A stretch of DNA of 20,000 nucleotides from an uncultured virus (IMG/VR IMGVR_UViG_3300032268_000397) (IMGVR_UViG_3300032268_000397); one strand, 5' to 3'; shown: positions 1,680 through 20,000, numbered from the stretch's first letter. Notes: a model not told the origin generated them from the sequence alone. Translations and numbers: made by a program.

Positions 1680-1694
1680 TTAACATATTTCTAT

Positions 1695-3485: not shown

Positions 3486-3512
3486 AAAAATTTCTCCTTT
3501 AGTTTAAATTAG

Positions 3513-3962: not shown

Positions 3963-3979
3963 AGTTATTTCTCCTTATA

Positions 3980-5443
3980 TTATTTAACACGTAGTACGTT
4001 TGTCTCAAGCCACTCTGCAATACTTGCTCTTGTGGCCTCTAATTGATCTACCTCATCAGAAGCGTTAATTAAAGTGGCTTCGGTTGAATCTACGTTTGTG
4101 AAAAGTTCTTCAGTAACTTCATCAGCCTTTGATTCTTCTTCAGCATACTTCTTATCCTTCTTTTCCTCTACCATTTTTGCGTCTTTCTTACTATCCTCTT
4201 GCTTAAGAGCCTTTTCCTTCTTCATTGTAACCTTCTTCATTGCGGCTACGATGAGATCAAAACTTGTATCGTCTAATTCTTCATAAGAAGCTAGAGACTC
4301 TTCTGTTTCTTCTTCTGAGAAACCTAAATCTAGAAGACTAGCTTTACGTGACATCTTACTCTTTTCCTTCTTCATCATCTTGAGTTCTTCTTCCTTGCTC
4401 ATCATTTCTTCCTTAGACTTAGCTAAAGCTTCTTCTAAAGATGAAATTGTTACATCTCTTTCTGATAATGACTTGTTGAGACTTTCAATTGAATCTGCTT
4501 TTGTTGTTAGTTCAGCTTGTAGCTTCGAAACAACATCTTCATGCTCTTTTGAATTAAAAGCTTCAACTGAAGCACGAAGTGTAGCATTTTCTTCTTTGAG
4601 AGATGCTAACTCAGCGCGAAGATCAGTCACGTTCTGTTCTAGTACTGTGTTATCTGTCATAGTATCTCCTTCACTGTGATTAAACTTAAAAGTTATTGTA
4701 TTATCTGAGCTAGCACGACTAGCATCTAAGATGACACTTCTTGGGTTGGCAGGCTTTGATACTAAACCTTTACCAGAAAAAGAAATGTCTTTTAAATATC
4801 TACCTATCTTACGTCCTTCATACTGTCCAGTTCCACCATAAGCTCTTAAATGCTTTGTTAAAAACGCCGACGCTTCACTCCTTGGTAATAATGCTGTAGA
4901 TCCACTTTCATCCATTACCGCGTAATCAAATCCAGAAAAAAGACATTCCATTGAAACAAACCATTTGCCTTCTTCAATTTCGGCAATAAGTTGCTTCATC
5001 CTGTCTCTATTTTCTTGATTCGTCCAACTGTTGTATAATACAGCTTCTGTTACGATATCGAAATCAGAAGTATAAGTTTCTACATCAGCTACAGTCGCAC
5101 CATCACGATCTACTACATAACTACCAGTTATATGCCCAATAATGTCATTCTCATTGTGCATAAAATTGAATTGTTTGTCTTCTGGTGTCTTACGAGCAGC
5201 CCAAGTTACAGCTGAATCGAAGACATCATCATTTTTATTCCATCCAGTAGAAACCAAAATAGACTTAATGTAATATAAATCTATTTGTTTAGGATTAGCA
5301 CTGTTTGCTATAACCTTATTTACATAGGACGGATTAAGGTCATTTTCTTCTGAAAGTATAACTGGCGAACAATATGCTATGGATACTTGTTTTTCTACAA
5401 GCTCTCCCACACCATCTTGTAATTCTTTCTTATATACGTTCAT
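3980..5443 (-). CDS. Prohead maturation protease fused to coiled-coil scaffold
   Basis: N-terminal domain with NKNDDVF, FNFMH..DIIG (His), VSMEC (Ser) and GLVSKPANPRS motifs; C-terminal half is an E/K-rich coiled coil; lies between portal and capsid. Confidence 0.75.
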   Translation of the reverse strand: MNVYKKELQDGVGELVEKQVSIAYCSPVILSEENDLNPSYVNKVIANSANPKQIDLYYIKSILVSTGWNKNDDVFDSAVTWAARKTPEDKQFNFMHNENDIIGHITGSYVVDRDGATVADVETYTSDFDIVTEAVLYNSWTNQENRDRMKQLIAEIEEGKWFVSMECLFSGFDYAVMDESGSTALLPRSEASAFLTKHLRAYGGTGQYEGRKIGRYLKDISFSGKGLVSKPANPRSVILDASRASSDNTITFKFNHSEGDTMTDNTVLEQNVTDLRAELASLKEENATLRASVEAFNSKEHEDVVSKLQAELTTKADSIESLNKSLSERDVTISSLEEALAKSKEEMMSKEEELKMMKKEKSKMSRKASLLDLGFSEEETEESLASYEELDDTSFDLIVAAMKKVTMKKEKALKQEDSKKDAKMVEEKKDKKYAEEESKADEVTEELFTNVDSTEATLINASDEVDQLEATRASIAEWLETNVLRVK

Positions 5444-5460
5444 ATTTACCTCTTATGAAG

Positions 5461-5469
5461 ATAATACAC
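5461..5469 (-). promoter_or_regulatory. Candidate late promoter motif GTGTATTAT
   Basis: TTTTTGTGTATTAT identical to the copy at 2413-2426, in the 35-bp gap before the protease gene. Confidence 0.55.
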
Positions 5470-5478
5470 AAAAAATAG

Positions 5479-7485: not shown

Positions 7486-7524
7486 ATTAAATCCTTATCA
7501 GTTAGATTGTTAGTTCAATAACAA

Positions 7525-9501
7525 TTAATACACATCTTTCATAGTGTCAGTAAACCAGCTTGGGCCAGAATAGTAATCTTCATCCTTGTTCTTCTTTTGA
7601 TAATCTCCATTAGCAAATCCGCCATAAAAATTGTATTCGTGAGCAGTCGGTGTTCTTTGTATTGTACGCGCAGCCATGTTAGCCATTAACAATGCAGAGT
7701 ATCTATCTTTTCTGATCTTATTTTTTTTGCCAGTACGAACTAAAACTTCTGGAGTGTCCCATCTATCTCTACCATTAGAAGTTTGAGTCATTTGTATCAT
7801 AGATAATTCATCTTTTAGTTCCTCAATCTCAATTACGCATTCTTCTAAAGTGTCAAACATTCGACTTCTAGATATATCTTCTGATTCAGATATAGCCAAA
7901 CTAATAGCGTCAAAATCTGGGAACAGTAGAACCTTGTCTTCAAAATCCTTTCTCATTCCATGATTAGCTTCTGCTAGCCATTCATGTCTAGCAAATTGAC
8001 ACATCTCTAATATGTGTAGTCCGCGCTCATCGTCTGTATCCTTTGGTTTACTATCTTCAATAGTAGGCCACACTAGAAATTCTCCAGGTTTTAATTTATC
8101 TTTATCGTGCAACGATTCCATGACTGCTATACCGCCGCCCTGCGCGTCAATAGAAACGTGTAGGCATGGAAATAGCTGCATTAAATCTCTAATTTTTCTA
8201 GCACAATATGAGTAGAAGTCTGTTTCAGATACATAGCCCTTTTTAACTTTTTCTTTATGCTCTGTTCGCGTAGTTGTCCAACAATGTACTATTTTTCTAT
8301 AGTTACCATCTAGTTCTAAAACAACAATACTAAAATTATCAACTTCTGAAGCAGGGTCTACGCCGTATACATAACGCTTTTCTTTATTACCAATTAAAGA
8401 TGCGTTGAAATGTATTGTGTTGCCGTTACTATCTATAATGTTATTAGATACTGAAGCAATACAGGATTCTACCAATGATCTTTTAAAAAACCCTTGAGAG
8501 TCTCTTGTAAAACAAGCTCCGTACTCCATTTGGTAAATACCAGTATGTACAGTCGCTTTAGATCTTGCTACTTGATCGGCATCCATAAAGCCTTTAGGTA
8601 GCAATTCATAAGGTATACGTATTATAGAATATTGCTTCCAATCAAAATTTTCTGGAGGATCTTCTCCAAAAATTTCGCGTAACATATTTGCATCACCCTT
8701 ACTTTTAATTATAGATTTCCACTTTTTCCAATAAGTAGCAAAGTGATTAAAATCATAGTAAGCAGTTCCAGATAAAATAATTTGATTGTCTTTTTTGATC
8801 TCTACAGGTTTATCAAGATCAATACCTAACTCTATGGCTTTTTGCTCTGCCGCCAATCTCTTTACGTTCTCTACTGGGTTAGCACTTACAGCAGCGAAAC
8901 CGGCAACAACGTTTTCGAAAATTTCTCTTGGAACAGACGCGAATTCGTCACATATGATATCATTGGCACGTTGACCTCTAATCTTTTGACCATCACCTAA
9001 AGGTAAACAGGTTATAGTGCTGTCATTAAGCTTAAGAGTACAACGATCAGTATCTCTTCTTGGGCCACTATCTCCATCGCAAACATCTCTAAGCATTGGA
9101 GAATTGTTCCATATCGTTTCCATGTATTCAAACAATATTTTGGACTGACGAAAAGCGGCACCAACAATAACAATTTTTCTTTTTGGTAGTATTAATGCGC
9201 GCAGTATGGAATATAATGAAAGCATAAAAGACTTTCCAGCACCGCGAGTAGCGATAAGCATAGGGAATTTACGCTCCCATAGTTCTCTTAAAATCAAAGA
9301 TTGAGATGGAAGAAGTTGAGTATTTAATATATGCTTGGCTATAAATGGAAGATAGTCGGGCTGGGTCATAAGCCAAGCTAATCTTATATTAAATTCTTCA
9401 TCATCAGAAGAAACGAATTGCATAGGATTAAAAAAGTTGCTTCCAACTTGATCTAAACCAAGCCATGCTTCTTCTACTATTTTAAGATCATTTACTCCCA
9501 T
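7525..9501 (-). CDS. terL: Terminase large subunit
   Basis: Walker A ATRGAGKS, IRGQRA, Walker B IICDEF, coupling motif LSGT, RNase H-like nuclease YGVDPA and C-terminal KDRYSA. Confidence 0.92.
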   Translation of the reverse strand: MGVNDLKIVEEAWLGLDQVGSNFFNPMQFVSSDDEEFNIRLAWLMTQPDYLPFIAKHILNTQLLPSQSLILRELWERKFPMLIATRGAGKSFMLSLYSILRALILPKRKIVIVGAAFRQSKILFEYMETIWNNSPMLRDVCDGDSGPRRDTDRCTLKLNDSTITCLPLGDGQKIRGQRANDIICDEFASVPREIFENVVAGFAAVSANPVENVKRLAAEQKAIELGIDLDKPVEIKKDNQIILSGTAYYDFNHFATYWKKWKSIIKSKGDANMLREIFGEDPPENFDWKQYSIIRIPYELLPKGFMDADQVARSKATVHTGIYQMEYGACFTRDSQGFFKRSLVESCIASVSNNIIDSNGNTIHFNASLIGNKEKRYVYGVDPASEVDNFSIVVLELDGNYRKIVHCWTTTRTEHKEKVKKGYVSETDFYSYCARKIRDLMQLFPCLHVSIDAQGGGIAVMESLHDKDKLKPGEFLVWPTIEDSKPKDTDDERGLHILEMCQFARHEWLAEANHGMRKDFEDKVLLFPDFDAISLAISESEDISRSRMFDTLEECVIEIEELKDELSMIQMTQTSNGRDRWDTPEVLVRTGKKNKIRKDRYSALLMANMAARTIQRTPTAHEYNFYGGFANGDYQKKNKDEDYYSGPSWFTDTMKDVY

Positions 9502-10118
9502 GATGTAATAACCTTATCAGCAAATCCATAGTTTACTGCGTCATTAGCGTTTATATACCAATCGCCATTCTTCATCTTTCTATAAAGAAAGTTTTTGACT
9601 TTTGTTAAATCCCAATTCTGATCTTTGAAATATTTACCTTTTACGCATCTGCTAGCATAAATATCCATCATGATGTCACAAAGGTTTTTCTCATATTTAA
9701 CCCAGTTTTGAACATTTAAATAATGACCATTAGCATCGCTAGAGCCAAAATGGGACATAAAGTAAGAATTTGGCGTCATAAGTCGTTTATCAGCAGCTTG
9801 TAAAATGATACTACTCATAGACTCTGCCTGTCCATAAACTATTATGGTTACATGGGATTTGCACATAGTAATAGTATCGAATATAGCCATTCCGTCAGAC
9901 CATTCTCCACCTATACTATGCATATGTATGAAAATTTCATTGTTGTTATCTTGTTCCAAAACACGTACATTTTTTATGAACGTATTAGCCATTTTATATT
10001 CAACGCCGGGATTGCTATTCTCATCTGATGCATAAGTATTATGCAAAAATATTTCTCTAGTCTTTATATTGCAGCCATAATTATGTAAATCAAACAATTT
10101 GTCATGTGTAATTGCCAT
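9492..10118 (-). CDS. clpP: ClpP-family serine protease
   Basis: HSIGG, AESMSSIIL (catalytic Ser), FMSH (His), DWYINANDAVNYGFADKVI. Start placed at 10118 (MAITHD), just after the upstream stop, rather than 10217. Confidence 0.85.
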   Translation of the reverse strand: MAITHDKLFDLHNYGCNIKTREIFLHNTYASDENSNPGVEYKMANTFIKNVRVLEQDNNNEIFIHMHSIGGEWSDGMAIFDTITMCKSHVTIIVYGQAESMSSIILQAADKRLMTPNSYFMSHFGSSDANGHYLNVQNWVKYEKNLCDIMMDIYASRCVKGKYFKDQNWDLTKVKNFLYRKMKNGDWYINANDAVNYGFADKVITSWE

Positions 10119-10119
10119 A

Positions 10120-10623
10120 TTATTTCTTTCTTCCAATAGTGTACATTTCATTAATTCGCTTAAAAATGCTACTAACAGCAAGGAATGCTGACTTTTTATT
10201 TCCGCAGAATAAGACATTTATGTTATTGTATATTTGAAATTCAACTAGGCACTTGAGCATGTATTTACCAGTAATTTTTAATGACGATTGATTTTTAATA
10301 GGTATTCTGGTGTCTTCGGGAAACTTTATTAATTCTTCCAAAGAAAACTCTAAAACTATAAATCTATGTGGGAATGACTGCATACGATCAATCTCTTGTA
10401 GGAACTGATGTTTTTTTTGTCCCAAATTTATAGCTAGTTCTTCTACGCATCCTTTGCGCTCTATACAGACTTTATCTTCTAAGCCTTGTATTGTATAGTC
10501 ACCAGTATCTAGTTTTTGATCAATCATGCCAGCGCATGTGTTGAATTTACTAAAGTAATAACCCTCCTGTTCTCTAGTGTCCTTAATTACAGTAAAAGGT
10601 GGTGCGACTTTATAGTTTGCCAT
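10120..10623 (-). CDS. ERCC4-domain (XPF/Mus81-type) nuclease
   Basis: IKDTREQ, LDTGDY and IERKG..E signature of ERCC4 nucleases. Confidence 0.85.
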   Translation of the reverse strand: MANYKVAPPFTVIKDTREQEGYYFSKFNTCAGMIDQKLDTGDYTIQGLEDKVCIERKGCVEELAINLGQKKHQFLQEIDRMQSFPHRFIVLEFSLEELIKFPEDTRIPIKNQSSLKITGKYMLKCLVEFQIYNNINVLFCGNKKSAFLAVSSIFKRINEMYTIGRKK

Positions 10624-10876
10624 CTACTATCTCTCTAAATAATTTTTCGTATTGTTTTTCTTTGTTTTTGATGCTATCATGGCAAGATTTACATAAAGTA
10701 ATACCATTATCAGTATCATATCTTAGAGATGCTGCACTAGACCACATTTTTATATGATGAACTTGCAACCTACTTTTAGATTTACATCCCGGCATTTGGC
10801 ATTGTCTTTTATCTCGTTTTTTTACATCCTGAGTAAAACGCTTATAGACATCTTCTGAAATTTTTCTATTATTCAT
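10610..10876 (-). CDS. HNH endonuclease
   Basis: RDKRQCQMPGC...LQVHHI...NGITLCKSCH zinc-finger HNH motif. Confidence 0.9.
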   Translation of the reverse strand: MNNRKISEDVYKRFTQDVKKRDKRQCQMPGCKSKSRLQVHHIKMWSSAASLRYDTDNGITLCKSCHDSIKNKEKQYEKLFREIVDGKL

Positions 10877-11127
10877 AGTTTTTCTACTTTAGTGATTCTA
10901 ATAAATTTTTTGATTTTTCTGCAAAGTATTCTACTTTTTATGGACTTATCTTTTTTTAAGACATACTTTATTAATCGATCCACTACGACAAAACACGCAT
11001 CGTCATAATTATCTGCTTCTATGAAAACTAGAGAAAATGGTATAGTGTATCCTATTAAGTGTACAGAGTACGATACTAGCTCTTGATATACATCAGAAAG
11101 ATCTATTGTTAGTCTATAGTTTTGCAT
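10873..11127 (-). CDS. Hypothetical protein
   Basis: 84 aa ORF overlapping both neighbours, consistent with translational coupling. Confidence 0.7.
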   Translation of the reverse strand: MQNYRLTIDLSDVYQELVSYSVHLIGYTIPFSLVFIEADNYDDACFVVVDRLIKYVLKKDKSIKSRILCRKIKKFIRITKVEKL

Positions 11128-12166
11128 CTATCATCAGTTTCACCAATCCGTATAGATCATGCTTTGGACTCCAACCTAGAACACTTTTTGCTTTTGAACA
11201 ATCACCGCGTAAGTATGGGACTTCTGAGGGTCTAACTAACTGCGGATCAATATATATAGCATCTTTCCAATCTATAATACTATCTAAATTAGTATATTTA
11301 AAACAAAGATCTAGAAATTCCCAAACGGTATGCGAGTTACCAGTGCAGATTACATAATCGTCTGGAATTTCTTGCTGTAGCATAAGCCACATAGCTTCAA
11401 CATAATCTCCAGCATATCCCCAATCTCTATAAGTATCTATATTTCCAAGCTTTAATTTTGGAAATACGCTGTCACCGACAATAATATTATGGTTATTAAC
11501 AAACACATTATTTGATGAATGATTAATAGAATTTAGCCATTTCTTAAAACTCACAGTCCATTTGACTATTTTTTGGGTTACGAAATTATCGCCTCTTCGC
11601 GGGCCTTCGTGATTGAATAATATTCCACAGCTACCATGCACATTGTAAGCGTCACGATACAATCTAACTAAATAATGTGCCGCGCATTTTGATATAGCGT
11701 ATGGTGAGTTGGGCATAAATTTAGTATTTTCGTCTTGATATTTACTTCCATCTTTATCTAGATCAAATGAACTACCAAACATTTCACTAGATGAGGCTTG
11801 GTAAAATTTGCAATTATTACCTGTATCCACAATAGCTTGGAGTACATTTAAGCAGCCTTTGCCGGTTATGTCCCATGTTAATGCTGGTTGACTAAACGAG
11901 GTTGCAACATGCGATTGTGCGGCTAGATTATAGACCTCATCTACATCTTCGTTATTCTTAAAAATGTTAATTACACTACTTACATCTGTTATATCCCCTT
12001 CGATCAAATTGAAGCTATCACAATCAGACAGATGTTTTAATCTTTGGGTATTATCCACGCTACAGCGACGAGTTACACCAATGACACTATAATCTTTCTC
12101 TAATAATAGGTCTGCTAGGTGACTGCCGTCCTGTCCAGTGATTCCAAATATAATAGCCTTTTTCAT
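11114..12166 (-). CDS. gmd: GDP-mannose 4,6-dehydratase
   Basis: GITGQDGS Rossmann motif, YNLAAQSHV, FYQASSSEMFG, SPYAISK (YxxxK), GILFNHE, LGN...RDWGYAGDYV, RPSEVP. Confidence 0.95.
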   Translation of the reverse strand: MKKAIIFGITGQDGSHLADLLLEKDYSVIGVTRRCSVDNTQRLKHLSDCDSFNLIEGDITDVSSVINIFKNNEDVDEVYNLAAQSHVATSFSQPALTWDITGKGCLNVLQAIVDTGNNCKFYQASSSEMFGSSFDLDKDGSKYQDENTKFMPNSPYAISKCAAHYLVRLYRDAYNVHGSCGILFNHEGPRRGDNFVTQKIVKWTVSFKKWLNSINHSSNNVFVNNHNIIVGDSVFPKLKLGNIDTYRDWGYAGDYVEAMWLMLQQEIPDDYVICTGNSHTVWEFLDLCFKYTNLDSIIDWKDAIYIDPQLVRPSEVPYLRGDCSKAKSVLGWSPKHDLYGLVKLMIDAKL

Positions 12167-12168
12167 AA

Positions 12169-12954
12169 TTAGTCCTTAATTGTATCCGGTGTAAGAAATG
12201 GTTGATCTACTGTATTATCTGCGTAGGTATGATAAGAAGAAAGGCGTTCCTTCTCCTTTTCTGTAGCAAGGCGCATTTTCTCCATCTCAATTCCATATTG
12301 TTTCATTTTGTCTGGATTATCGATTAGCATAGCTACCCAACTAGTAAAGCTTTGCTTAGAGTCCTCCAATCGCTTTATTCTCTGTTCGCGTGTACCCTTC
12401 ATTTCACGAAGTATAGCGGCCTTCTTTGTTTGTAGTTCACGATAGTCTTTATTTAGAGCTTCCTGAGAAGCTCGTAGAGAAGCAGACTGTCTTTCTAGGT
12501 TGAATATATAATCCATGTCTTGTTGATCTTTTTCGCGCTCACGTTCAGTCGCAATCATTTTATCGTAAACGTTTATCTGTACTATATTATCCTTATTACT
12601 TCTAAGGCACCTATTCATTAATATCTCTAATTTTATAACGTCTATTACTTGCAACTCTTCTGTTGGGAAAACGTCATCATTAAACTGTGATATGATTCTA
12701 CCCCAGTGATATTTAAACAACTCTAATTCTTCCTCAGTAAACTGTGAAGCTAATTCACCCCAATAGGGGCGATCTTCTAGTGAGTAAGTGGCCTCTTCTT
12801 CTGGTGATAAATTATGTCTAAATTTTCGCTTAATAAACTGATCTATAGATTCTACATCACGATCTAGCTCTTTAGCTATATCTTCTGGAACCATAGTATT
12901 AATTAGGCGCGAAATAATACGCTCTTCTTCTTTAGAAATACGCCCCTTACGCAT
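12169..12954 (-). CDS. N-terminal HTH plus coiled-coil protein; possible terminase small subunit
   Basis: KGRISKEEERII...PEDIAKELDRDVESI is HTH-like, followed by long helices; upstream of TerL in the same operon. TerS role is inference only. Confidence 0.45.
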   Translation of the reverse strand: MRKGRISKEEERIISRLINTMVPEDIAKELDRDVESIDQFIKRKFRHNLSPEEEATYSLEDRPYWGELASQFTEEELELFKYHWGRIISQFNDDVFPTEELQVIDVIKLEILMNRCLRSNKDNIVQINVYDKMIATEREREKDQQDMDYIFNLERQSASLRASQEALNKDYRELQTKKAAILREMKGTREQRIKRLEDSKQSFTSWVAMLIDNPDKMKQYGIEMEKMRLATEKEKERLSSYHTYADNTVDQPFLTPDTIKD

Positions 12955-13435
12955 TATTTATATTCTCCATTATTTCCTTTATTAGAGCGACTATTTTTTC
13001 CCTTTTAGCTTTTGTCATGGCAACGTTGTTAATAAACTTAAGGTAATCTGAACGATAGCGCGCTGGCAAGCGATCAGAGATTAATTCGTCCATATCTTTA
13101 AAATCAACGCTGTGAGTAGTTTCGTTATTTTCTACATTTTCTTCATAAGATAATTGCATAGGGGAACAGACTCTTCTTTTTTCATAATTATTACTAAATG
13201 AGTAGTTGTCGCGTACAAAGTTTTTTAATCTATTTGACAGATGGACGGATAGGAAGTTTTCAAGGGGGCGCGTTTCATCATAGCGATCTAGCGCATCTAA
13301 GCAAATGATAAAAGACTCTTGCTTAATATCGTTTATGTCATAACCGTAAAATGTATACTTGGGGGATATTCTATCTATTACTTTATTGATTTGTGCAACC
13401 AGTTCTTCTTCTGTCATGTTTGAAGGTATTTTCAT
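12947..13435 (-). CDS. Phage sigma70-family sigma factor-like protein (region 2)
   Basis: YGYDINDIKQESFIICLDALDRYDETRPLENFLSVHLSNRLKNFVRD matches sigma region 2; start 13435 overlaps the upstream stop (ATGA); region 4 poorly recognisable. Confidence 0.75.
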   Translation of the reverse strand: MKIPSNMTEEELVAQINKVIDRISPKYTFYGYDINDIKQESFIICLDALDRYDETRPLENFLSVHLSNRLKNFVRDNYSFSNNYEKRRVCSPMQLSYEENVENNETTHSVDFKDMDELISDRLPARYRSDYLKFINNVAMTKAKREKIVALIKEIMENINNA

Positions 13436-14055
13436 ATTTTGCGCCATCCTTTACCGCTGTAATATTTTAAACAGTCATCGGCGTTATCATATATAATAAG
13501 CCCCTTAGTCTTTGGCGCATCTTTACAGGAATCATAAGAAGTGGCCCTGCATAAGTCATTAATATTTAGTGATTTTACACTTGAACCAATTCTTCCTAAG
13601 ACACAATTATCATCTAAAGTAACGGCGTCAACTAGGCCAGACTCATTAGAATAAACAACACTATATGGAAATGCGAAAAATTCATCAAGTGAGAGGGGCG
13701 GATCTACGGATAGGGAGATAACTTCCTTGTCTACGCATACCATATTAGTGGGTTGAGTATATACGTTAGCCTGCTTGAGTTCACCGTTGTAGAATAGTGT
13801 GATGGGGCGTAAACGTACTAGGTATGTCTTGTCTAGTATTTTCTTAAACTTACCTATACCGCGCTCACCTATAGAAATGGCATTGGGGGGCGTTAGCTTA
13901 ACTAATGAATATATATAGTGGGACTCATAATCGATTAGTTCAAGAGTCTTTGCTACATTGGGGTCTAGTTGCTCATTTGTTAATTCAAGTAGGTTGCTAG
14001 AGTTAATTACGTATTTAGCTAGGCAATTGTTTAGTGGAAGTTGTTGATGATTCAT
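13432..14055 (-). CDS. Hypothetical protein with C-terminal GLIIYD...KYYSG..W motif
   Basis: About 207 aa ORF; purine-rich RBS before ATG 14055; the C-terminal motif resembles short beta modules of virion fibre proteins. Confidence 0.6.
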   Translation of the reverse strand: MNHQQLPLNNCLAKYVINSSNLLELTNEQLDPNVAKTLELIDYESHYIYSLVKLTPPNAISIGERGIGKFKKILDKTYLVRLRPITLFYNGELKQANVYTQPTNMVCVDKEVISLSVDPPLSLDEFFAFPYSVVYSNESGLVDAVTLDDNCVLGRIGSSVKSLNINDLCRATSYDSCKDAPKTKGLIIYDNADDCLKYYSGKGWRKI

Positions 14056-14188
14056 CCTTTTTCCCTTCATCCAGTAATAAAGATTCTAGTGGGCGATCCT
14101 CTTTCTCTAAGTCTTCAATAATAGAAGTGTTTAGACTTGCATTGGCGCGACAGTGTAATTGCGATTCAACTAATTTTGGTTCATTCAT
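14015..14188 (-). CDS. Small hypothetical protein, first gene of the leftward operon
   Basis: AAGGAG RBS upstream of ATG 14188 (MNEPKLVESQ...), 57 aa. Confidence 0.6.
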   Translation of the reverse strand: MNEPKLVESQLHCRANASLNTSIIEDLEKEDRPLESLLLDEGKKDESSTTSTKQLPS

Positions 14189-14206
14189 ATTATTTCTCCT
14201 TACCGT

Positions 14207-14215
14207 ATTATACAC
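14207..14215 (-). promoter_or_regulatory. Leftward promoter motif GTGTATAAT
   Basis: Variant of the recurring GTGTAT(T/A)A motif just upstream of the RBS of the first minus-strand gene. Confidence 0.55.
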
Positions 14216-14355
14216 TGTTTGGTGCCTTTTGTTGCGCTTGGGGGCGATGAGGGAGGATTGGGTAGTACATTACGTTAATAATTTTGAATCGTGAATGAAC
14301 TACCCCGGCCCAAAGGCATAGTCAGCCCACTTTATCTATTGAAGATAAAACCCCC

Positions 14356-14376
14356 CAGTGTCAGTGTCAGTGTCAG
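14356..14376. repeat. Tandem hexamer (CAGTGT) x3.5
   Basis: cagtgtcagtgtcagtgtcag read directly, at the strand switch. Confidence 0.9.
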
Positions 14377-14381
14377 CTACA

Positions 14382-14459
14382 TAAGTGTTTGGTATATAAG
14401 GACTTACATCGCATATTGTACGCTTGATCGGTCGTAAGTCTTTATATATCAATAACTTA
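14382..14459. repeat. Double-palindrome element, copy 1
   Basis: TAAG-N17-CTTA at 14382-14406 and 14435-14459 (53-bp offset). Confidence 0.9.
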
Positions 14460-14472
14460 CGTAAAGAGTGTT

Positions 14473-14506
14473 TGGCATAGGTCTTGCTATAGCAAACGGT
14501 ATGCCA
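14473..14506. promoter_or_regulatory. Face-to-face pair of sigma54 (-24/-12)-like sites
   Basis: Plus strand TGGCATAGGTCTTGCT (14473-14488); minus strand TGGCATACCGTTTGCT (14506-14491). Both are GG-N10-GC. Confidence 0.65.
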
Positions 14507-14571
14507 AGTATAGGGAAAAGGGAAAGAAAGTTTTGTCAAAATCTCTTGACAATATTATTTGGATTTTTCTC

Positions 14572-14607
14572 TTGCAAGCTAAAGAATGTTTGGTATAATG
14601 TCGATAT
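14572..14607 (+). promoter_or_regulatory. sigma70 promoter with nested sigma28-like motif
   Basis: TTGCAA-N16-TATAAT with TG extension; TAAAG-N15-GTCGATAT. Confidence 0.7.
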
Positions 14608-14635
14608 AAGAAGTAAGAAAGAAAGAGAAGAGAAA

Positions 14636-14854
14636 ATGGAAAAAGCAACCTCAGTCAACAGTTTCATCAACAGTCTCCCCAAGATTACCCAGAAGAAAGT
14701 CTGGAAGGTAATCGATCAGAATGGTACGGTTGTACAGTATGTCGGGGCTACCGATAATCGGAAAAGCTCTGCACAAGCGTATATCGATCATAAGTACGCT
14801 GGTCAAAAGCTTACGCTGACCTTCTCGCACTTCAAGGGATTGATGACCCTCTAA
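14636..14854 (+). CDS. Hypothetical early protein (72 aa, basic)
   Basis: MEKATSVNSF... start chosen downstream of the promoter and a purine-rich leader instead of the ORF-track start 14468. Confidence 0.7.
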   Translation: MEKATSVNSFINSLPKITQKKVWKVIDQNGTVVQYVGATDNRKSSAQAYIDHKYAGQKLTLTFSHFKGLMTL

Positions 14855-14863
14855 TAGAGGGGG

Positions 14864-14891
14864 TTGACACGAAGAAAAAACTTGCTAGAAT
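14864..14891 (+). promoter_or_regulatory. sigma70 promoter
   Basis: TTGACA-N16-TAGAAT with TG extension, preceded by a CCCTCT-AAT-AGAGGG hairpin. Confidence 0.75.
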
Positions 14892-14916
14892 AAACACACA
14901 AGAAAGAGAGACTCTA

Positions 14917-15033
14917 ATGATTACGGTTATCGAATACGCCCAACTGTTTGCCCTTATTACGTTTGCTGGTTTCATGTCCTACACTGCTCACGAAGTGGGT
15001 AACGCTGTTCAAGATATGTTCGATGAAATGTGA
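14917..15033 (+). CDS. Small hydrophobic peptide (38 aa)
   Basis: MITVIEYAQLFALITFAGFMSYTAHEVGNAVQDMFDEM; has its own promoter and exactly fills the gap to the next promoter. Confidence 0.6.
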   Translation: MITVIEYAQLFALITFAGFMSYTAHEVGNAVQDMFDEM

Positions 15034-15062
15034 TTGACACAGCAAAAGAAGTTTGATAGAAT
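15034..15062 (+). promoter_or_regulatory. sigma70 promoter
   Basis: TTGACA-N17-TAGAAT with TG extension. Confidence 0.8.
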
Positions 15063-15102
15063 ACACACACAAGAGAACGATAACCCAATAGGATAGAAAA
15101 CA

Positions 15103-15423
15103 ATGGCTACCAAATTCCCCATCATCGAAAATGCCAAGCGTCAAGCCCGTATGTGCTTCCTTGGAATGGCAATCCCAACAGAGGTAAAGAACATTGACGG
15201 TGAGATGATTCAAGTTGAAAAGGTACTAAAGTTCAATCGTAAAGCCTTGAAGAATCTTGGTAAGGTAACAAAAGAAAAGATTGACAAGCGATACTCTGGT
15301 GGTGACGATACTATGATCGTTCCAGTAGGTAAGCCGGGATCGCGTGAACGTGTTGAAGAATTAGCCAAGCAGTACAGCGTTGTACAGCGTATGGAAATTA
15401 GCCCCTTTTCATTTAAGGAGTAA
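15103..15423 (+). CDS. Hypothetical early protein (106 aa)
   Basis: ORF with AGGA RBS downstream of a promoter. Confidence 0.75.
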   Translation: MATKFPIIENAKRQARMCFLGMAIPTEVKNIDGEMIQVEKVLKFNRKALKNLGKVTKEKIDKRYSGGDDTMIVPVGKPGSRERVEELAKQYSVVQRMEISPFSFKE

Positions 15424-15428
15424 TAACA

Positions 15429-15500
15429 ATGATAGGCGCAATACTATTTGTGGTTTGCTGGTGTGGAATGTTGTATACCTGTACAATTGTCAGAGATTGA
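15429..15500 (+). CDS. Hydrophobic micro-peptide (23 aa)
   Basis: MIGAILFVVCWCGMLYTCTIVRD with AAGGAG RBS. Confidence 0.5.
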   Translation: MIGAILFVVCWCGMLYTCTIVRD

Positions 15501-15517
15501 AAAAAGAGAGAATTGAA

Positions 15518-15712
15518 ATGGACAAAAGATTTGTTATCGGTTATGATGGGTTTCTCAGGCGTGAAGCAATGCAGACTTTTGAGCAAGCAAAAGCGTCTTG
15601 GCTGAAGGATATCCAGAATCGTTTTCTTTATGAGTACGATTGTTCAGTATATGAACTGAATGAAGATGGAAGTATCAATCGTCGCGTGTCATATGAAGAA
15701 CTCAAATCTTAA
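15518..15712 (+). CDS. Hypothetical protein (64 aa)
   Basis: MDKRFVIGYDG... internal ATG of the ORF-track 15380 frame, with a GAGAG leader. Confidence 0.65.
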   Translation: MDKRFVIGYDGFLRREAMQTFEQAKASWLKDIQNRFLYEYDCSVYELNEDGSINRRVSYEELKS

Positions 15713-15730
15713 TACAACCTTTGCTTGACG

Positions 15731-15808
15731 TAAAGCCTTGTGCCTAAAAGACTTAGGGCAAGGCGGGCGAGGCGAATTCGCCGTAAGTGTTTATGCCACA
15801 ATGGTTTA
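15731..15808. repeat. Double-palindrome element, copy 2
   Basis: TAAA-N17-CTTA 15731-15755 and TAAG-N17-TTTA 15784-15808; GC-rich 28-bp spacer. Confidence 0.9.
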
Positions 15809-15839
15809 TGACAATCTTATTTTTCCTTGATTTTTCCTC

Positions 15840-15867
15840 TTGACGATGCCGATACATACTGTATAAT
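15840..15867 (+). promoter_or_regulatory. sigma70 promoter with internal GCCGATAC
   Basis: TTGACG-N16-TATAAT. Confidence 0.75.
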
Positions 15868-15890
15868 GAGCGTATCCAAAGGAGAGAATC

Positions 15891-16595
15891 ATGAAAGTTG
15901 CAAACGGTAATGACAAGTTGGGCAAGGGTTGTTTGGTAGTGTCGCGTCCAGTGGGTGATACATGCCCGCCCGATTGTGATTTCTTGGGTAACGGCTGTTA
16001 TGCAGAGCAGACCGAAAAAATGTATCCTAATGTTCGCCCCGCTGGTATGCAGAATATCATAACGGAAAAGAATCGCATTCGTGCTATGATTCTTGATGCC
16101 ATTCGTCAAAGTAAGTCTATCCGCTGGCATGAGCGTGGTGATTGGTTTCTCAATGGCGAACTTGACCTAGACTATGTTGCTAATGTAACGTGGGCTTGTG
16201 AGAGTATTATTGCCGATGGTACAACGCTGCCTGACATGTGGTTTTATACTCATATCTATGACGATAGGCTTGTAAGTCTTAGTAAGTATATGAAAGTATA
16301 TGCCAGTATTCACAATGACGAAGACATGGGAGAAGCTCTCGCAAAGGGATTCAAACTTTTTGCATGGTGTGATAGTGATCAGAAGATTGCTAAAAAGCGT
16401 CCCAAGCGTAAGAATCTGGCAGAGGCTTGGAGACAGTCTCTGCCCAAGCTTGTAGTGTTGAATGGTACTAAATTTGTAACATGCCCAGAGATTCGTCGCG
16501 GTCGCGGTGTTGTAACATGCACCCCCACTAAGGGTAGTGTAACATGTGATTTGTGTGTAAAGGGTTTGGCTAACGTATTGTTTCCAGCACATTAG
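15891..16595 (+). CDS. Gp88-like Cys-rich protein (radical-SAM-like fold, probable)
   Basis: GNDKLG, TCPPDC......CYA, IRWHERGDW, WFYTH and C-terminal CPE/C/CDLC; AAGGAG RBS. Confidence 0.6.
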   Translation: MKVANGNDKLGKGCLVVSRPVGDTCPPDCDFLGNGCYAEQTEKMYPNVRPAGMQNIITEKNRIRAMILDAIRQSKSIRWHERGDWFLNGELDLDYVANVTWACESIIADGTTLPDMWFYTHIYDDRLVSLSKYMKVYASIHNDEDMGEALAKGFKLFAWCDSDQKIAKKRPKRKNLAEAWRQSLPKLVVLNGTKFVTCPEIRRGRGVVTCTPTKGSVTCDLCVKGLANVLFPAH

Positions 16596-16606
16596 GAGTA
16601 TACATC

Positions 16607-16840
16607 ATGATTAGTTATAGTCACCAGTATTTAGATATTAGGGCAGTTTGTGAACATAATGAACTCGACGTTGAATTAGTAATGCAGCATCTTTGCGATA
16701 GCGACCTTTCATTTGGAAGTAACTATGATACTTTAATATCTCAGCATCATCTACAGAGTATTATTAACGAGGGATTTGATAACGTGCAGTTAGACTTTGG
16801 TGGACATGATGATACTGTCGTTATTAGCCTAGGAAGTTGA
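16607..16840 (+). CDS. Small acidic hypothetical protein (77 aa)
   Basis: AGGAG RBS; stop codon abuts repeat copy 3. Confidence 0.7.
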   Translation: MISYSHQYLDIRAVCEHNELDVELVMQHLCDSDLSFGSNYDTLISQHHLQSIINEGFDNVQLDFGGHDDTVVISLGS

Positions 16841-16842
16841 CG

Positions 16843-16920
16843 TAAGTCCTTGACCCTAAAAGACTTAGGGCAAGGGCGGCGGGCCGCATTTGTCGCAAGT
16901 CTTTATTTGATAAGGGTTTA
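16843..16920. repeat. Double-palindrome element, copy 3
   Basis: TAAG-N17-CTTA 16843-16867 and CAAG-N17-TTTA 16896-16920. Confidence 0.9.
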
Positions 16921-16950
16921 GAGAAAATCGAAAAAAATCTTTTTTGGCAC

Positions 16951-16987
16951 TTGACAACTAAACTTTTGCTCTGTATAATGCCGATAT
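16951..16987 (+). promoter_or_regulatory. Consensus sigma70 promoter with nested sigma28-like motif
   Basis: TTGACA-N17-TATAAT with an A/T-tract UP element; TAAAC-N16-GCCGATAT. Confidence 0.85.
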
Positions 16988-17007
16988 AGAAAGTAAGGAG
17001 AAATCAA

Positions 17008-17166
17008 ATGGAAACGCTTTACATTAGTGATTGCTGTGGCGAGTACCTTGCGAGTGAGCATGTGGAGTATGAGGTTTGCCCGCGATGCAAAGAACATTGT
17101 GAAGTAATTACAGAAGAGTATACTCTGGCACTTGACGAAAACAATACACTGTGGTATATTGGCTGA
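17008..17166 (+). CDS. Small zinc-ribbon-like protein (52 aa)
   Basis: METLYISDCCGEY...VCPRCKEHCE...; AAGGAG RBS; below the ORF-track size cut-off. Confidence 0.75.
   Translation: METLYISDCCGEYLASEHVEYEVCPRCKEHCEVITEEYTLALDENNTLWYIG
17132..17160 (+). promoter_or_regulatory. sigma70 promoter inside the zinc-ribbon gene
   Basis: TTGACG-N17-TATATT with TG extension. Confidence 0.6.
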
Positions 17167-17177
17167 AAGGAAATAAA

Positions 17178-17246
17178 ATGAATGTCTTGCTGTTTGGCTT
17201 TTTTCTTGCGTTTCTTTTTTATCTCGCTATCACACTAAGGGACTAA
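17178..17246 (+). CDS. Hydrophobic micro-peptide (22 aa)
   Basis: MNVLLFGFFLAFLFYLAITLRD with AAGGA RBS. Confidence 0.5.
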   Translation: MNVLLFGFFLAFLFYLAITLRD

Positions 17247-17250
17247 TACC

Positions 17251-17475
17251 ATGAGCCACCCCGACCCATTGTTTGATCCAGAGAATTCTTACGAGGACGA
17301 TGATATGAACTATGACGATTACAATGACTTTTATGAGGATACGGATGAAGAAACGACCGATGAATCTTGGGATGATTCATATGATGATAGTATGGATGGG
17401 GATGCTGAATCTGCGTTCGGTTCATGTGGATGGGGAACTGATGAAACCTACGGCTATTATGGAGACGATGAATAA
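17251..17475 (+). CDS. Extremely acidic small protein (74 aa)
   Basis: About 29 D/E and no K/R; AAGGGA RBS; C-terminal DGDAESAFGSCGWGTDE motif. Confidence 0.75.
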   Translation: MSHPDPLFDPENSYEDDDMNYDDYNDFYEDTDEETTDESWDDSYDDSMDGDAESAFGSCGWGTDETYGYYGDDE

Positions 17476-17681
17476 TGTTGCATAGATTCTATGATATCAA
17501 GGCAGAAAATGAACAGTTCGAAGAGTTTGTTCATGATAAAGAATATGTCTTGCATGTACCAGAATATGACATGTCAACCCCTCTTGAGAGGCAGGAGGGT
17601 ATAGGATACATGCTCGAAATTCTGACTGCCGCAAGTGGCGTGAACGTTTGTTCATTCAAGGTAGATCAGAAGATCGCTTGA
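17475..17681 (+). CDS. Hypothetical protein (68 aa)
   Basis: TAATG overlap with the upstream gene; stop abuts repeat copy 4. Confidence 0.7.
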   Translation: MLHRFYDIKAENEQFEEFVHDKEYVLHVPEYDMSTPLERQEGIGYMLEILTAASGVNVCSFKVDQKIA

Positions 17682-17683
17682 CC

Positions 17684-17761
17684 TAAAGCCTTGTCTCTAA
17701 ACGACTTAGAGCAAGGCGGGCGGGCTGGGTTGATCGTAAGTCTTTTCATATCAAGTATTTA
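17684..17761. repeat. Double-palindrome element, copy 4
   Basis: TAAA-N17-CTTA 17684-17708 and TAAG-N17-TTTA 17737-17761. Confidence 0.9.
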
Positions 17762-17770
17762 GGACAAAAT

Positions 17771-17810
17771 TCAAGTTTGTCTTGACAAGTGTCGATACAT
17801 GGTGTAAGAT
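17771..17810 (+). promoter_or_regulatory. sigma70 promoter with nested sigma28-like motif
   Basis: TTGACA-N17-TAAGAT; TCAAG-N15-GTCGATAC. Confidence 0.75.
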
Positions 17811-17828
17811 GGTATGCACAAAGGAGTT

Positions 17829-17966
17829 ATGTATATGGTAGATGAGGAAGATTGGGTACAACCGGAAGATGAGACAGAACAGCAACTCTTGGTAGAGTGG
17901 GAGGAATGGGTAAGATCGCAACCCGCACAACCGCCACAAGAGGATGGGCAGTCCTGCCCGAACTAG
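17829..17966 (+). CDS. Small acidic protein (45 aa)
   Basis: MYMVDEEDWVQPEDETEQQLLVEWEEWVRSQ...; AAGGAG RBS. Confidence 0.65.
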   Translation: MYMVDEEDWVQPEDETEQQLLVEWEEWVRSQPAQPPQEDGQSCPN

Positions 17967-18006
17967 AAACATCATAGTTTTTGGCCGCATAGTCAGCGAA
18001 ACTGAT

Positions 18007-18046
18007 TAAAGTTGGGCTTGACGTATGGCCGATAATAAGATATACT
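18007..18046 (+). promoter_or_regulatory. sigma70 promoter with nested sigma28-like motif
   Basis: TTGACG-N17-TATACT; TAAAG-N16-GCCGATAA. Confidence 0.75.
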
Positions 18047-18052
18047 GAGCGT

Positions 18053-18565
18053 ATGAACATATTCATATTAGATAACGATCCACGAACAGCAGCAGAGTAT
18101 ATGTGTGACAAGCATATACCAAAGATGATCGTGGAGACATTCCAAATGATGGGTAGTGCATTGCGTCGGCATGGTGCTAGGGATGAGCAAATGCCACTCA
18201 CGCAGGCCGGAAAGCCACTCATAGGTGGGTATAAGCATCATCCATGTACGGTGTGGGCTGGTGATAGCATATGTAATTTTGTCTGGCTAGGATTACATGG
18301 TATGTCATTGTGCGACGAGTATACATTTAGATATAACAAGACTCATAGCTGTGATATGAAAATACGTCATATGTGTGAGCTTATGGATATGCTACCTAAT
18401 ATCCCGCAAACTCCATATGCCTTGGCAATGCCAGACGAGTATAAATGTTCAGACGCTATTGACTCTTACCGTCGATACTATATAATGGAAAAGTCGCGTT
18501 TTGCTAAGTGGGAAAAGGGCCGCAAGTCTCCACACTGGTGGAATAAGGAGGAATGTTATGTCTAG
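18053..18565 (+). CDS. Pyrimidine-dimer DNA glycosylase / endonuclease V-like protein
   Basis: MNIFILD...DKHIPKMIVETFQM...HHPCTVWA...EYTFRYNKTH...AMPDEY...YRRYY pattern of the DenV-like (Pyr_excise) family. Confidence 0.8.
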   Translation: MNIFILDNDPRTAAEYMCDKHIPKMIVETFQMMGSALRRHGARDEQMPLTQAGKPLIGGYKHHPCTVWAGDSICNFVWLGLHGMSLCDEYTFRYNKTHSCDMKIRHMCELMDMLPNIPQTPYALAMPDEYKCSDAIDSYRRYYIMEKSRFAKWEKGRKSPHWWNKEECYV

Positions 18566-18806
18566 TATTTTTGATGAATATACAGCCGCACAACTTCGTG
18601 AGATATATCAGGAACCTTTTGAGGATTGGCCTGATGATTTCAGGCATTTCTTGCATGATGAGATAGCGGCAGATTTCTTGGAAGCGTGGATGGAACAGTG
18701 TGAAGAAGATGAATACATGGAACGTGTCCGTCAAGTTATAGAAGATTTGACTTATGGATATGAAGATGAGCATGGCAATGTTATGAAAGAATTTGATATA
18801 CACTAA
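18558..18806 (+). CDS. Acidic hypothetical protein (82 aa)
   Basis: MSSIFDEY... with AAGGAGG RBS. Confidence 0.7.
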   Translation: MSSIFDEYTAAQLREIYQEPFEDWPDDFRHFLHDEIAADFLEAWMEQCEEDEYMERVRQVIEDLTYGYEDEHGNVMKEFDIH

Positions 18807-18825
18807 CTTTTTAGAGGAATATAAA

Positions 18826-19308
18826 ATGCCAAACTGGTGTTCTAATAATATTGTTGTTACTCATACAAAGCCTGAGAAGTTGAAAGAATTTGTTGACGCA
18901 TATAACAATGGTGCCGTATGCGAACACTTTATGCCACAGCCCAAAGATTTAGATTCAGACGATTGTTTTGGCCCAAACGGCTGGTATACTTGGCGTTGTA
19001 ACAATTGGGGAGTCAAGTGGGACTTTGGTAAAGAAGATCATGACAGTCGAGCAAAGATTGTAAACAACGAGGTGAGCATCAGCTTTTCAACTGCATGGTC
19101 GCCCCCTATTGAGCTTTATCATCATTTACAGGACGAAGGATATGAGATTAAAGCTACATACTGGGAGCCAGGAATGGCTTTCTGTGGCGTGTATGAGGAT
19201 GGTGAAGAAAATACTATTTCCTATACATGCAATGATGAAATCCCAATTGGGCTTTGGGATGAATACAATATGGAAGAACTTTTGGAAGAGACGGAGGCTG
19301 ACGCTTGA
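18826..19308 (+). CDS. DUF1281/YubB ferredoxin-like domain protein
   Basis: MPNWCSN, WYTWRCNNWGVKWD, FSTAWSPP and YWEPGMAFCG signature; GAGG RBS. Confidence 0.8.
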   Translation: MPNWCSNNIVVTHTKPEKLKEFVDAYNNGAVCEHFMPQPKDLDSDDCFGPNGWYTWRCNNWGVKWDFGKEDHDSRAKIVNNEVSISFSTAWSPPIELYHHLQDEGYEIKATYWEPGMAFCGVYEDGEENTISYTCNDEIPIGLWDEYNMEELLEETEADA

Positions 19309-19333
19309 CAGGTGTGGGACTATGTGATACAAT
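19305..19333 (+). promoter_or_regulatory. sigma70 promoter for the tRNA
   Basis: TTGACA-N17-TACAAT with TG extension. Confidence 0.8.
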
Positions 19334-19351
19334 CATGTAGTCCTACCCTTT

Positions 19352-19424
19352 GGGGGTGTAACTTAGCGACTAAAGTAGCGGTCTTTTAAACCGTTTATCG
19401 TGGGTTTGAGTCCCACCGCCCCCA
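19352..19424 (+). tRNA. tRNA-Lys (anticodon UUU), CCA not encoded
   Basis: Acceptor GGGGGTG/CGCCCCC plus discriminator A; D-stem ACTT/AAGT; anticodon arm GCGGT-CTTTTAA-ACCGT; T-arm GTGGG-TTTGAGT-CCCAC. Confidence 0.9.
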
Positions 19425-19446
19425 CTTCTTTTACAAAGGACGCAGC

Positions 19447-19521
19447 ATGATAGAGTTATATGTTTTGATCTTGTTTTGGGTTTTGATCTTTGGGGCTACA
19501 GGGGATAACAATGGAAAATAA
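19447..19521 (+). CDS. Hydrophobic micro-peptide (24 aa)
   Basis: MIELYVLILFWVLIFGATGDNNGK with AAGGA RBS. Confidence 0.5.
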   Translation: MIELYVLILFWVLIFGATGDNNGK

Positions 19522-19654
19522 CTTTCTATATAATGAGTATGTGATGGGTGATACAGACTATTACGAAGATCAAGAAAATAGACAAACTCAAGTGTGGGAC
19601 TACTACGCTCTCTACCATGATGAAGAGATTGAAGACATAGACGTAAGTGATTGA
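19511..19654 (+). CDS. Small acidic protein (47 aa)
   Basis: MENNFLYNEYVMGDTDYYEDQE...DEEIEDIDVSD; GGGGA RBS; ends inside repeat copy 5. Confidence 0.6.
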   Translation: MENNFLYNEYVMGDTDYYEDQENRQTQVWDYYALYHDEEIEDIDVSD

Positions 19655-19721
19655 TAAATAAGGACTTATGGATGATCGGGGCCGCCGCGTTGATCCTAAG
19701 TCTTTATGTACCATAGACTTA
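19644..19721. repeat. Double-palindrome element, copy 5
   Basis: TAAG-N17-CTTA 19644-19668 and 19697-19721. Confidence 0.9.
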
Positions 19722-19739
19722 CAGCAAATAAAGATTTTT

Positions 19740-19782
19740 TCAAGTTTACCCTCTTGACAGGACGATAATGATAGTATACAAT
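19740..19782 (+). promoter_or_regulatory. sigma70 promoter with nested sigma28-like motif
   Basis: TTGACA-N17-TACAAT; TCAAG-N16-GACGATAA. Confidence 0.75.
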
Positions 19783-19804
19783 ACGTGTAATGAAAGAGAG
19801 ATCA

Positions 19805-19957
19805 ATGATGAATACAGACACTTACATGGTAATGAAGGGCAGTAAGGTTCTTGGATACGTTGAAGCGTATAGCACCTATCACGCCTTGATTATGGCTGAA
19901 AAGCTGTATGGTAAAAATTTGATTATTGAGAGAATTTCTCAAGTTTGTCAAGCATAG
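19805..19957 (+). CDS. Small hypothetical protein (50 aa)
   Basis: MMNTDTYMVMKGSKVLGYVEAYSTYHALIMAEKLYGKNLIIERISQVCQA after a promoter and GAGAG leader. Confidence 0.65.
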   Translation: MMNTDTYMVMKGSKVLGYVEAYSTYHALIMAEKLYGKNLIIERISQVCQA

Positions 19958-20000
19958 ATAAAACAAGCAGATAGTGGCCGCTGGCAGAATGATATCAAAG

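Follow-up and report, generated by a model that had tools for sequence, protein, structure and literature searches.

Rigid double-dyad elements at the early cassette borders of large uncultured phages: putative boundary modules upstream of host-type promoters

The DNA studied here is a 20,000-nucleotide stretch from an uncultured virus (IMGVR_UViG_3300032268_000397), referred to at its full length as the window. A preliminary description of the window had noticed five copies of a double-palindrome element in the early region, between positions 14,382 and 19,721. We found that these copies belong to a large family of elements carried by uncultured phages of about 135-244 kb. The element is sharply defined and highly constrained, with a length that is constant in more than 180 copies and letters that are better conserved than the surrounding genes, and it appears to be a cis-element that acts when infection begins. 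Every second early promoter carries one, as does every border between cassettes. We tentatively interpret it as a composite boundary module, in which a protein docking array and a transcript-end hairpin are combined in front of an early promoter, and consider the chance that this interpretation is right to be somewhat short of even.

All ten 25-bp sites of the preliminary description were found where it had placed them, and in each of the five pairs the promoter-distal site (site A) and the promoter-proximal site (site B) are offset by exactly 53 bp (Table 1). The consensus proposed for the sites recovered eight of them when up to 3 mismatches were allowed (chance expectation 0.04; none of 200 shuffles attained eight), whereas the sites at 15784 and 17684, which are more degenerate, were missed. 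Both were recovered as parts of whole elements by a profile hidden Markov model (HMM) derived from members of the family. Scanning the 20-kb window with this profile yielded exactly five elements (14379-19726, plus strand, E values from 2.5e-18 to 9.7e-14) and none in positions 1-14300. Since the element as a whole is palindromic, every copy in the window has a minus strand score as well, but the plus strand score is always the higher one. The CG flanks of the sites and the G+C-rich spacer of copies 2-5 were likewise confirmed; in element 1, the first of the array, the spacer is A+T-rich. The repeat unit of 78 bp, on the other hand, had been drawn too short: each 25-bp site is the core of a 37-bp dyad (TtGaCG...cGnCaA), which brings the total length to about 90 bp. 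A short (CAGTGT)n run lies directly before element 1 (14356-14376).

When the fetched loci were searched with the profile, 313 places representing 189 distinct copies were found, and 184 of the 189 carry no net indel. A set of 121 copies that are less than 90% identical to each other aligns over 90 columns with zero gaps. The spacing was also checked in IMG/VR by collecting AAGGACTTA..TAAGTNTTTAT contexts with gaps of 13-43: the gap is exactly 28 in 44 of the 67 distinct contexts, and no other gap reaches more than 3 of them. With the AAAGACTTA variant no peak at gap 28 was seen in IMG/VR (4 of 93 among the matches listed). The family consensus, with its blocks separated by slashes, is TtGaCG / TAAa.CCTT-N7-AAGGACTTA / gGgC.Ag..cGGCCGGCCc..tTtG.CG / TAAGTCCTTAT-N4-cAA...TTTA / CGaCaA. 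Seven columns of the 121-copy alignment are invariant (A2, T23, T24, A55, A56, T76 and T77) and 15 more are nearly so, with freely varying positions between the fixed letters. The earlier statement that geometry is conserved over sequence thus describes the family well: the length is exact, certain letters are fixed, and the positions between them are free.

The strength of the constraint can be judged from 14 orthologous loci, in which diversity is 0.00-0.02 in the conserved blocks vs 0.10-0.20 in the flanking genes. The conserved letters are under purifying selection stronger than that on the neighbouring genes. The G+C-rich centre follows a different rule, its composition being conserved but not its sequence; its G/C runs are asymmetric and occur in either orientation, which argues that it is not a terminator stem. 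A separate observation concerns the 4-nt centre of site B (columns 65-68) and the right half of the spacer, which differ in almost every ortholog of the 14 loci, with an estimated diversity of about 0.6 per site against the 0.10-0.20 of the flanking genes, although the letters next to them are invariant. This hypervariability may reflect a plain lack of constraint, or it may be a means of keeping the copies from recombining.

The elements occupy a narrow part of the phage genome. In four complete genomes (230-244 kb, with terminal repeats according to the source) 30-39 strand-matches were counted, corresponding to 15-20 elements each, and in all four the elements are confined to one region of 18-20 kb, with none in the remaining at least 210 kb. 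The record nearest to the window, G001 (135 kb, 98% identical to the window, terminating within element 3), has four elements, all within its first 3.2 kb.

Two features of the surroundings, which the preliminary description had missed, are a tight coupling to a sigma-70-type promoter downstream and to the end of an open reading frame (ORF) upstream. From 14380 on, the window carries small plus strand ORFs behind very strong promoters of this type, and a promoter lies downstream of all five elements (Table 1). Eight promoters with 11-12 of 12 matches were found in the 6-kb early part, seven of them on the plus strand, whereas no promoter of the 14-kb late part exceeds 10 of 12. Among 168 elements of the family, 120 have a same-strand promoter (at least 10 of 12 matches) no more than 250 bp downstream; the corresponding counts are 12 for upstream, 10 for downstream on the other strand and 27 for upstream on the other strand. 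The distance between the centre of site B and the -35 box is most often 44-45 bp (14 of 57 sequence clusters) and otherwise 33-141 bp, and A/T runs lie in this interval. Helical phasing of site B relative to the promoter was considered and rejected: the Rayleigh tests are nominally significant (p 2e-4 to 0.04), but a single favoured distance accounts for this, and some of the modes are out of phase.

On the other side, the TGA stops of ORFs 16607-16840 and 17475-17681 lie in the TTGACG flank of elements 3 and 4, respectively, ORF 19490-19654 terminates within site A of element 5, and ORF 15518-15712 stops 19 nt before element 2. Across the family an ORF end was found inside, or no more than 80 nt upstream of, 151 of 160 copies, and in the flank itself in 46; these figures are approximate, since chance alone often produces open frames of 40 codons.

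Two further sequence words occur in or near the early promoters. One, CGATA(A/C/T), has a fixed place, either in the promoter spacer (promoters 15840-15867, 17782-17810, 18018-18046 and 19754-19782) or directly after the -10 hexamer (14600-14610 and 16980-16990); it recurs in promoters of related contigs and may represent another regulatory signal or the region in which transcripts start. The other is an extra palindrome, CCTTAC-N6/7-GTAAGG, which lies between site B and the promoter in many related copies and reuses the CTTAC/GTAAG letters of the site edges.

A palindrome may be read as duplex DNA or may fold as RNA, and the alignment was analysed for both. The paired fraction is highest on three palindrome diagonals (0.63-0.65), but this is owing wholly to the conserved letters. 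At the variable positions of these diagonals observed minus expected pairing is -0.01 to -0.04, that is, there is no excess of covariation, and RNAalifold predicted 0 pairs from the 121 copies. Folding energies were compared with controls in which each column was shuffled among the copies. Relative to these controls, folding is poorer for the centre (columns 17-62; z +7.5) and the spacer (z +5.3) and no different for site B (z 0.9) and the full element (z -0.1). The lack of covariation at the variable positions of site B and of the centre speaks for the element being recognised as duplex DNA. In our reading of the alignment, the pattern fits a sequence-specific reader of the double strand, in the simplest case a protein that contacts the element in a fixed frame.

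Site A behaves differently, and its hairpin, which is absent from site B, had escaped the preliminary description. Site A together with the first part of the spacer folds at -9.0 vs -6.1 kcal/mol in the column shuffles (z -14.5) and is also more stable than the dyad-equivalent side of site B (-9.0 vs -4.8 kcal/mol; 88 of 121 copies; p 3e-8). The hairpin occurs in three registers, with pair sums of 26, 33 and 39/40 in about 32, 20 and 38 of the 121 copies, and the fixed letters keep their columns across the registers, so that they come to lie in a stem, a loop or an internal loop depending on the copy. For the class III stem 33 compensatory cells were counted vs 14.4 expected (0 of 500 shuffles), with compensatory changes in 6 of 12 pairs, and 82.7% of the cells are paired vs 75.1% in the shuffles (0 of 500); the class III subset was picked by folding, and the compensatory-change test is biased towards structure to that extent. 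Within the window, class III hairpins are formed by element 3 (-22.3 kcal/mol) and element 4 (-18.2 kcal/mol), and element 2 has a local hairpin on its site A side. We take these results to mean that two constraints overlap in the element, namely fixed-frame recognition and, on the promoter-distal side only, a hairpin, for which the 3' terminus of the upstream transcript would be the simplest place of action.

The boundary module that we envisage would work as follows. Each element of about 90 bp would mark the boundary between two immediate-early gene cassettes. Its two dyads, with centres 53 bp apart and roughly at -80 and -133 from the downstream start site, would be the docking sites of a sequence-specific protein, which probably binds each dyad as a dimer; the two dimers, presumably binding cooperatively, would form one fixed complex across the G+C-rich centre. 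Such a complex could serve the strong host-type promoter downstream as an insulator or a co-regulator; it might, for example, stop read-through and supercoils that arrive from the upstream cassette, or switch all early promoters together. In the upstream transcript the promoter-distal dyad, that is, site A with its flanks, would fold into a stable hairpin right behind the stop codon, where it might act as an attenuator or as a protector of the 3' end. If the element is indeed read by a protein, this protein would control the whole host-takeover programme of an abundant group of freshwater phages, and the modules would represent ready-made insulator/promoter parts.

A possible lead to the recognising protein came from bacterial genomes. 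Scanning 596 Gb on both strands for the 18 specified bases gave 31 matches vs about 17 by chance, the latter figure being a rough estimate. The true elements among them are on short contigs of metagenome-assembled genomes (MAGs), binned into four different phyla or classes. These contigs are presumably phage fragments, and their spread over four groups means that no host can be named. A related repeat was found in a 4.3-Mb Gammaproteobacteria MAG (G006), which contains 17 copies of TAAGTCCTTATNTNTCCGGAATTTAC at no more than 2 mismatches; 120 other genomes of the order contain none. In its frame (TAAGTCCTTAT-N10-TTTA, with CG or CA next) this 25-mer agrees with site B, and its half-site variants mirror those of the phages. 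In four copies AAGGACTTA lies exactly 28 nt upstream, around a perfect small hairpin (L253-L256, ~1520-1640). Often, the repeat precedes a G-run plus TACCC. No Tn3-type transposase was found in G006, none of its five Y1 transposase genes is within 1.5 kb of the repeat, and the repeat has no Rfam match.

The likeness between the bacterial and the phage sequences may be due to a shared recognising protein or to a shared mobile ancestor. Since the code TAA-nnn-CTTAT and its partner AAGGACTTA at a distance of 28 nt also occur in the bacterial repeat, the recognising protein could be bacterial, and the repeat offers a concrete route to it. A bolder version of the proposal, which we regard as rather improbable, is that the modules are a phage analogue of chromatin boundaries, at which a protein available from the very start of infection, host-encoded or injected along with the DNA, would occupy both dyads of each module and so insulate 5-20 domains of transcription and supercoiling in the immediate-early region; the binder might then be a widespread bacterial protein co-opted by large phages.

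Within the phage genomes the gene searches found no binding protein. None of five genomes has an HU/IHF gene, and Pfam revealed no clear DNA-binding domain in the 49 proteins common to G001 and the 244-kb genome G002, whose functions are in replication, recombination, nucleotide metabolism and glycosyl transfer. A candidate, and only a candidate, is the basic early protein of 106 amino acids encoded at 15103-15423 of the window. It represents the most widespread early family, with 21 distinct homologues located beside elements, sometimes two per locus. Its members have 104-139 amino acids, an invariant EKV.KFN and in most cases GK-PGS, and match no Pfam or PHROG entry; the Atlas gave only weak leads. 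The AlphaFold model is of low confidence (pLDDT 67.7, pTM 0.31).

The outcome of these gene searches and the quality of that model weigh against a module read by a protein, and so do several properties of the elements themselves. Four of the nine strong promoters in the 14.3-20 kb interval have no element, so that promoter activity in itself does not depend on one. Strict phasing to the promoter is absent, distance modes of 49 and 60 being present besides 34, 45 and 55. The earlier proposal that all sites lie on one face of the DNA has its sole support in the arithmetic 53 = 5 x 10.6; the conservation profile has a period of about 18 bp and none of 10.5 bp. As to the hairpin of site A, the transcribed strand is only slightly favoured (-9.0 vs -7.9 kcal/mol), so that the hairpin could equally form in DNA, and it lacks a U tract, though the phage uses a canonical terminator elsewhere (2455-2424, minus strand, after a late gene).

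The closest described system is the promoter-early stem-loop (PeSL) cassette of T4-like phages. It is described as a terminator in the form of a stem-loop, followed by an A+T-rich stretch and an early promoter of the sigma-70 type; it lies between ORFans, and the indels between related phages fall at the repeats (Arbiol et al. 2010, PMC2839356; Comeau et al. 2014, PMC4122927). The present element is likewise a repeated intergenic module of about 100 bp among small early ORFs at cassette borders, with the same order of stem-loop (here a potential one), A+T-rich stretch, sigma-70-type promoter and ribosome site, and with indels between relatives adjoining the repeat. It is PeSL-like in position and, judged by this analogy, probably in part of its function. 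One could therefore ask whether the elements are plain PeSL-type cassettes, in which the sequence of a terminator stem-loop and an early promoter is maintained mainly through recombination or gene conversion between copies, and which chiefly lead to the shuffling of cassettes, with no dedicated protein.

Several comparisons between relatives agree with such an explanation. In the early region the window and G001 differ by three indels, each of which abuts an element on one side (Table 1). In element 1 of G001, site A and the 28-bp spacer, along with the (CAGTGT)n run, are replaced by unrelated letters between flanks that are 98% identical; the break is at site B, and the 25+28+25 geometry is retained. 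In contigs from other runs the ORF before element 3 is swapped for 231 other letters, and cassettes are joined at elements or promoter leaders, although joints in such metagenome contigs are weak evidence. Finally, early proteins of G001 and G002 are 59-70% identical, whereas most structural proteins are 26-65% identical, and the greater likeness of the early proteins than of most structural and replication proteins suggests that early cassettes are exchanged between clades. The elements also account for the places at which the genomes of these phages, and their assemblies, break and recombine.

Other observations speak against a plain PeSL-type cassette. Gene conversion would homogenise whole tracts, and here invariant single letters stand beside saturated neighbours. 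A terminator would require neither the exact 53-bp offset nor a second dyad nor a G+C centre that does not pair, the U tract is missing, and a clean deletion from element to element is not seen among the three indels. Where PeSL is described as a single stem-loop of G/C runs that acts as a terminator, two sequence-specific dyads at an invariant offset are present here, the G+C centre is unpaired, and a hairpin forms only at the distal dyad. PeSL is described from T4-like myoviruses; the clade studied here is unrelated, with a large terminase (TerL) no more than 29% identical to that of any cultured phage. A plain PeSL-type cassette is in our judgement unlikely to be the full explanation, but its chances are not negligible.

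A further possibility is that the elements bind a nucleoid protein borrowed from the host, one of the IHF/HU type or related to it in kind, that would bend the DNA upstream of the early promoters from the beginning of infection. The IHF consensus is WATCAANNNNTTR, including a CAA-N4-TTR part. All four half-sites of the element contain AA-N4-TTA, with the spacing of that part, and C69-A70-A71...T76-T77-A78 of site B fits it. A host factor would also be at hand at immediate-early promoters, where the elements would act before any phage protein exists, and the related pair of motifs, likewise separated by 28 nt, occurs at dispersed places in one bacterial genome. That genome, however, appears far more G+C-rich than the phages (35% for G001 and G002). 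Furthermore, conservation is lacking in the WAT part, where columns 66-68 are almost random, and of the four half-sites only one or two have the C, which reaches 70% only at column 69. We consider IHF-type sites to be a doubtful explanation.

A purely RNA-level element is very unlikely. In this case a long hairpin would either be cut in the manner of RNase III or terminate transcription, comparably to phage T7, whose early genes are separated by RNase III processing hairpins. Like these, the RNAs of element 1 (-33 kcal/mol, z -5.2) and element 5 (z -4.5) fold into single, long, imperfect hairpins of about 35 bp between early genes, and the covariation in the site A hairpin and its place right behind stop codons are in line with a function in RNA. 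Unlike the T7 hairpins, the family has no pairing common to its members, as shown above by RNAalifold, by the neutral full element and by the centre that folds worse than shuffles, and each element has its own promoter after it. For the full element the two strands are equal (90 vs 90 copies), and the fixed letters change between stem, loop and internal loop with the register. An Rfam scan of 14000-20000 with E up to 1 found only a tRNA (19352-19424) and no match to an element; a scan with the intrinsic terminator consensus flagged one of the five elements, with 3 matches in the region vs 3.7 expected.

That the elements are site-specific recombination sites or a selfish miniature mobile element of the REPIN/MITE kind is highly improbable, although arms of 9-11 bp flank a variable core of 7 bp and one MAG shows a genome-specific burst of the related repeat: the five phage genomes contain no tyrosine recombinase (PF00589) above the Pfam cut-off, apart from which one genome has a single weak match, and no Y1 transposase (RAYT, PF01797), so that the recombinase option of the preliminary description is not supported; directly repeated recombination sites would moreover delete cassettes, and purifying selection is strong. 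REP doublets, BIMEs and REPINs are protein-binding sites and mRNA-end hairpins at operon ends of bacterial chromosomes, and the element shares with them two extragenic, imperfect palindromes of about 25 bp in inverted arrangement around a less conserved spacer. It differs from them in that there is no RAYT gene, in that the copies are gathered in one 18-20 kb region, mostly in one orientation, instead of being dispersed, in its exactly conserved length and in its fixed relation to promoters and ORF ends.

Table 1. Positions of the elements, promoters and indels in the window, with the block of late genes
Feature	Position	Strand	Details
Element 1	14376..14465	+	site A 14382-14406, spacer 14407-14434, site B 14435-14459; profile E 9.7e-14
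Element 2	15725..15814	+	site A 15731-15755, site B 15784-15808; profile E 4e-17
Element 3	16837..16926	+	site A 16843-16867, site B 16896-16920; profile E 2.5e-18
Element 4	17678..17767	+	site A 17684-17708, site B 17737-17761; profile E 7.3e-17
Element 5	19638..19727	+	site A 19644-19668, site B 19697-19721; profile E 1e-15
Sigma-70-type promoter after element 1	14572..14599	+	TTGCAA-16-TATAAT
Sigma-70-type promoter after element 2	15840..15867	+	31 bp past site B, 11/12 matches
Sigma-70-type promoter after element 3	16951..16979	+	30 bp past site B, 12/12 matches
Sigma-70-type promoter after element 4	17782..17810	+	20 bp past site B, 10/12 matches
Sigma-70-type promoter after element 5	19754..19782	+	32 bp past site B, 11/12 matches
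Indel 1 (window vs G001)			700-bp block in G001, begins with an extra element
Indel 2 (window vs G001)			154-bp ORF, directly before element 2
Indel 3 (window vs G001)	16607-16840		245-bp ORF, directly before element 3; absent from G001, break at element edge
Late/structural genes	1-14215	minus	block preceding the early region

The phage from which the window derives has no close cultured relative by comparison of DNA and TerL. Megablast and blastn searches of 50,697 phage records found no DNA match for the 5.8-kb region or for one element, and TerL is 25-29% identical to that of the best cultured phages, which infect Microcystis and Bacillus. According to their labels, the public runs in which the stretch occurs are freshwater, lake-water, aquatic or unspecified metagenomes. 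Literature searches, bioRxiv supplements aside, turned up nothing relevant on the motif strings or on palindromes at phage early promoters.

The products of the late block include the large terminase, a ClpP-like prohead protease, a minor capsid protein, fibre-like proteins and a GDP-mannose dehydratase, as well as HNH and ERCC4 nucleases. A small protein encoded on the minus strand at 12947-13447 matches sigma-70 region 2 weakly (E 2e-4, under the Pfam cut-off) and is conserved (38% identity) in G002, so that it could serve the phage as a sigma factor for later genes. The early region also contains a gene for tRNA-Lys (anticodon TTT, 19352-19425), which has its own consensus-like promoter (19305-19333) and no element.

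The giant ORFs of G001 encode tape-measure and fibre-like proteins, and for this reason a virion RNA polymerase that would use hairpin promoters, as in phage N4, was rejected. The tape-measure-like ORFs have 3435 residues in G001 (52171-62478) and 6454 residues in G002 (13704-33068), sizes that would imply extremely long tails, and fibre-like giants with RCC1, DUF285, laminin-G and fn3 repeats are present as well.

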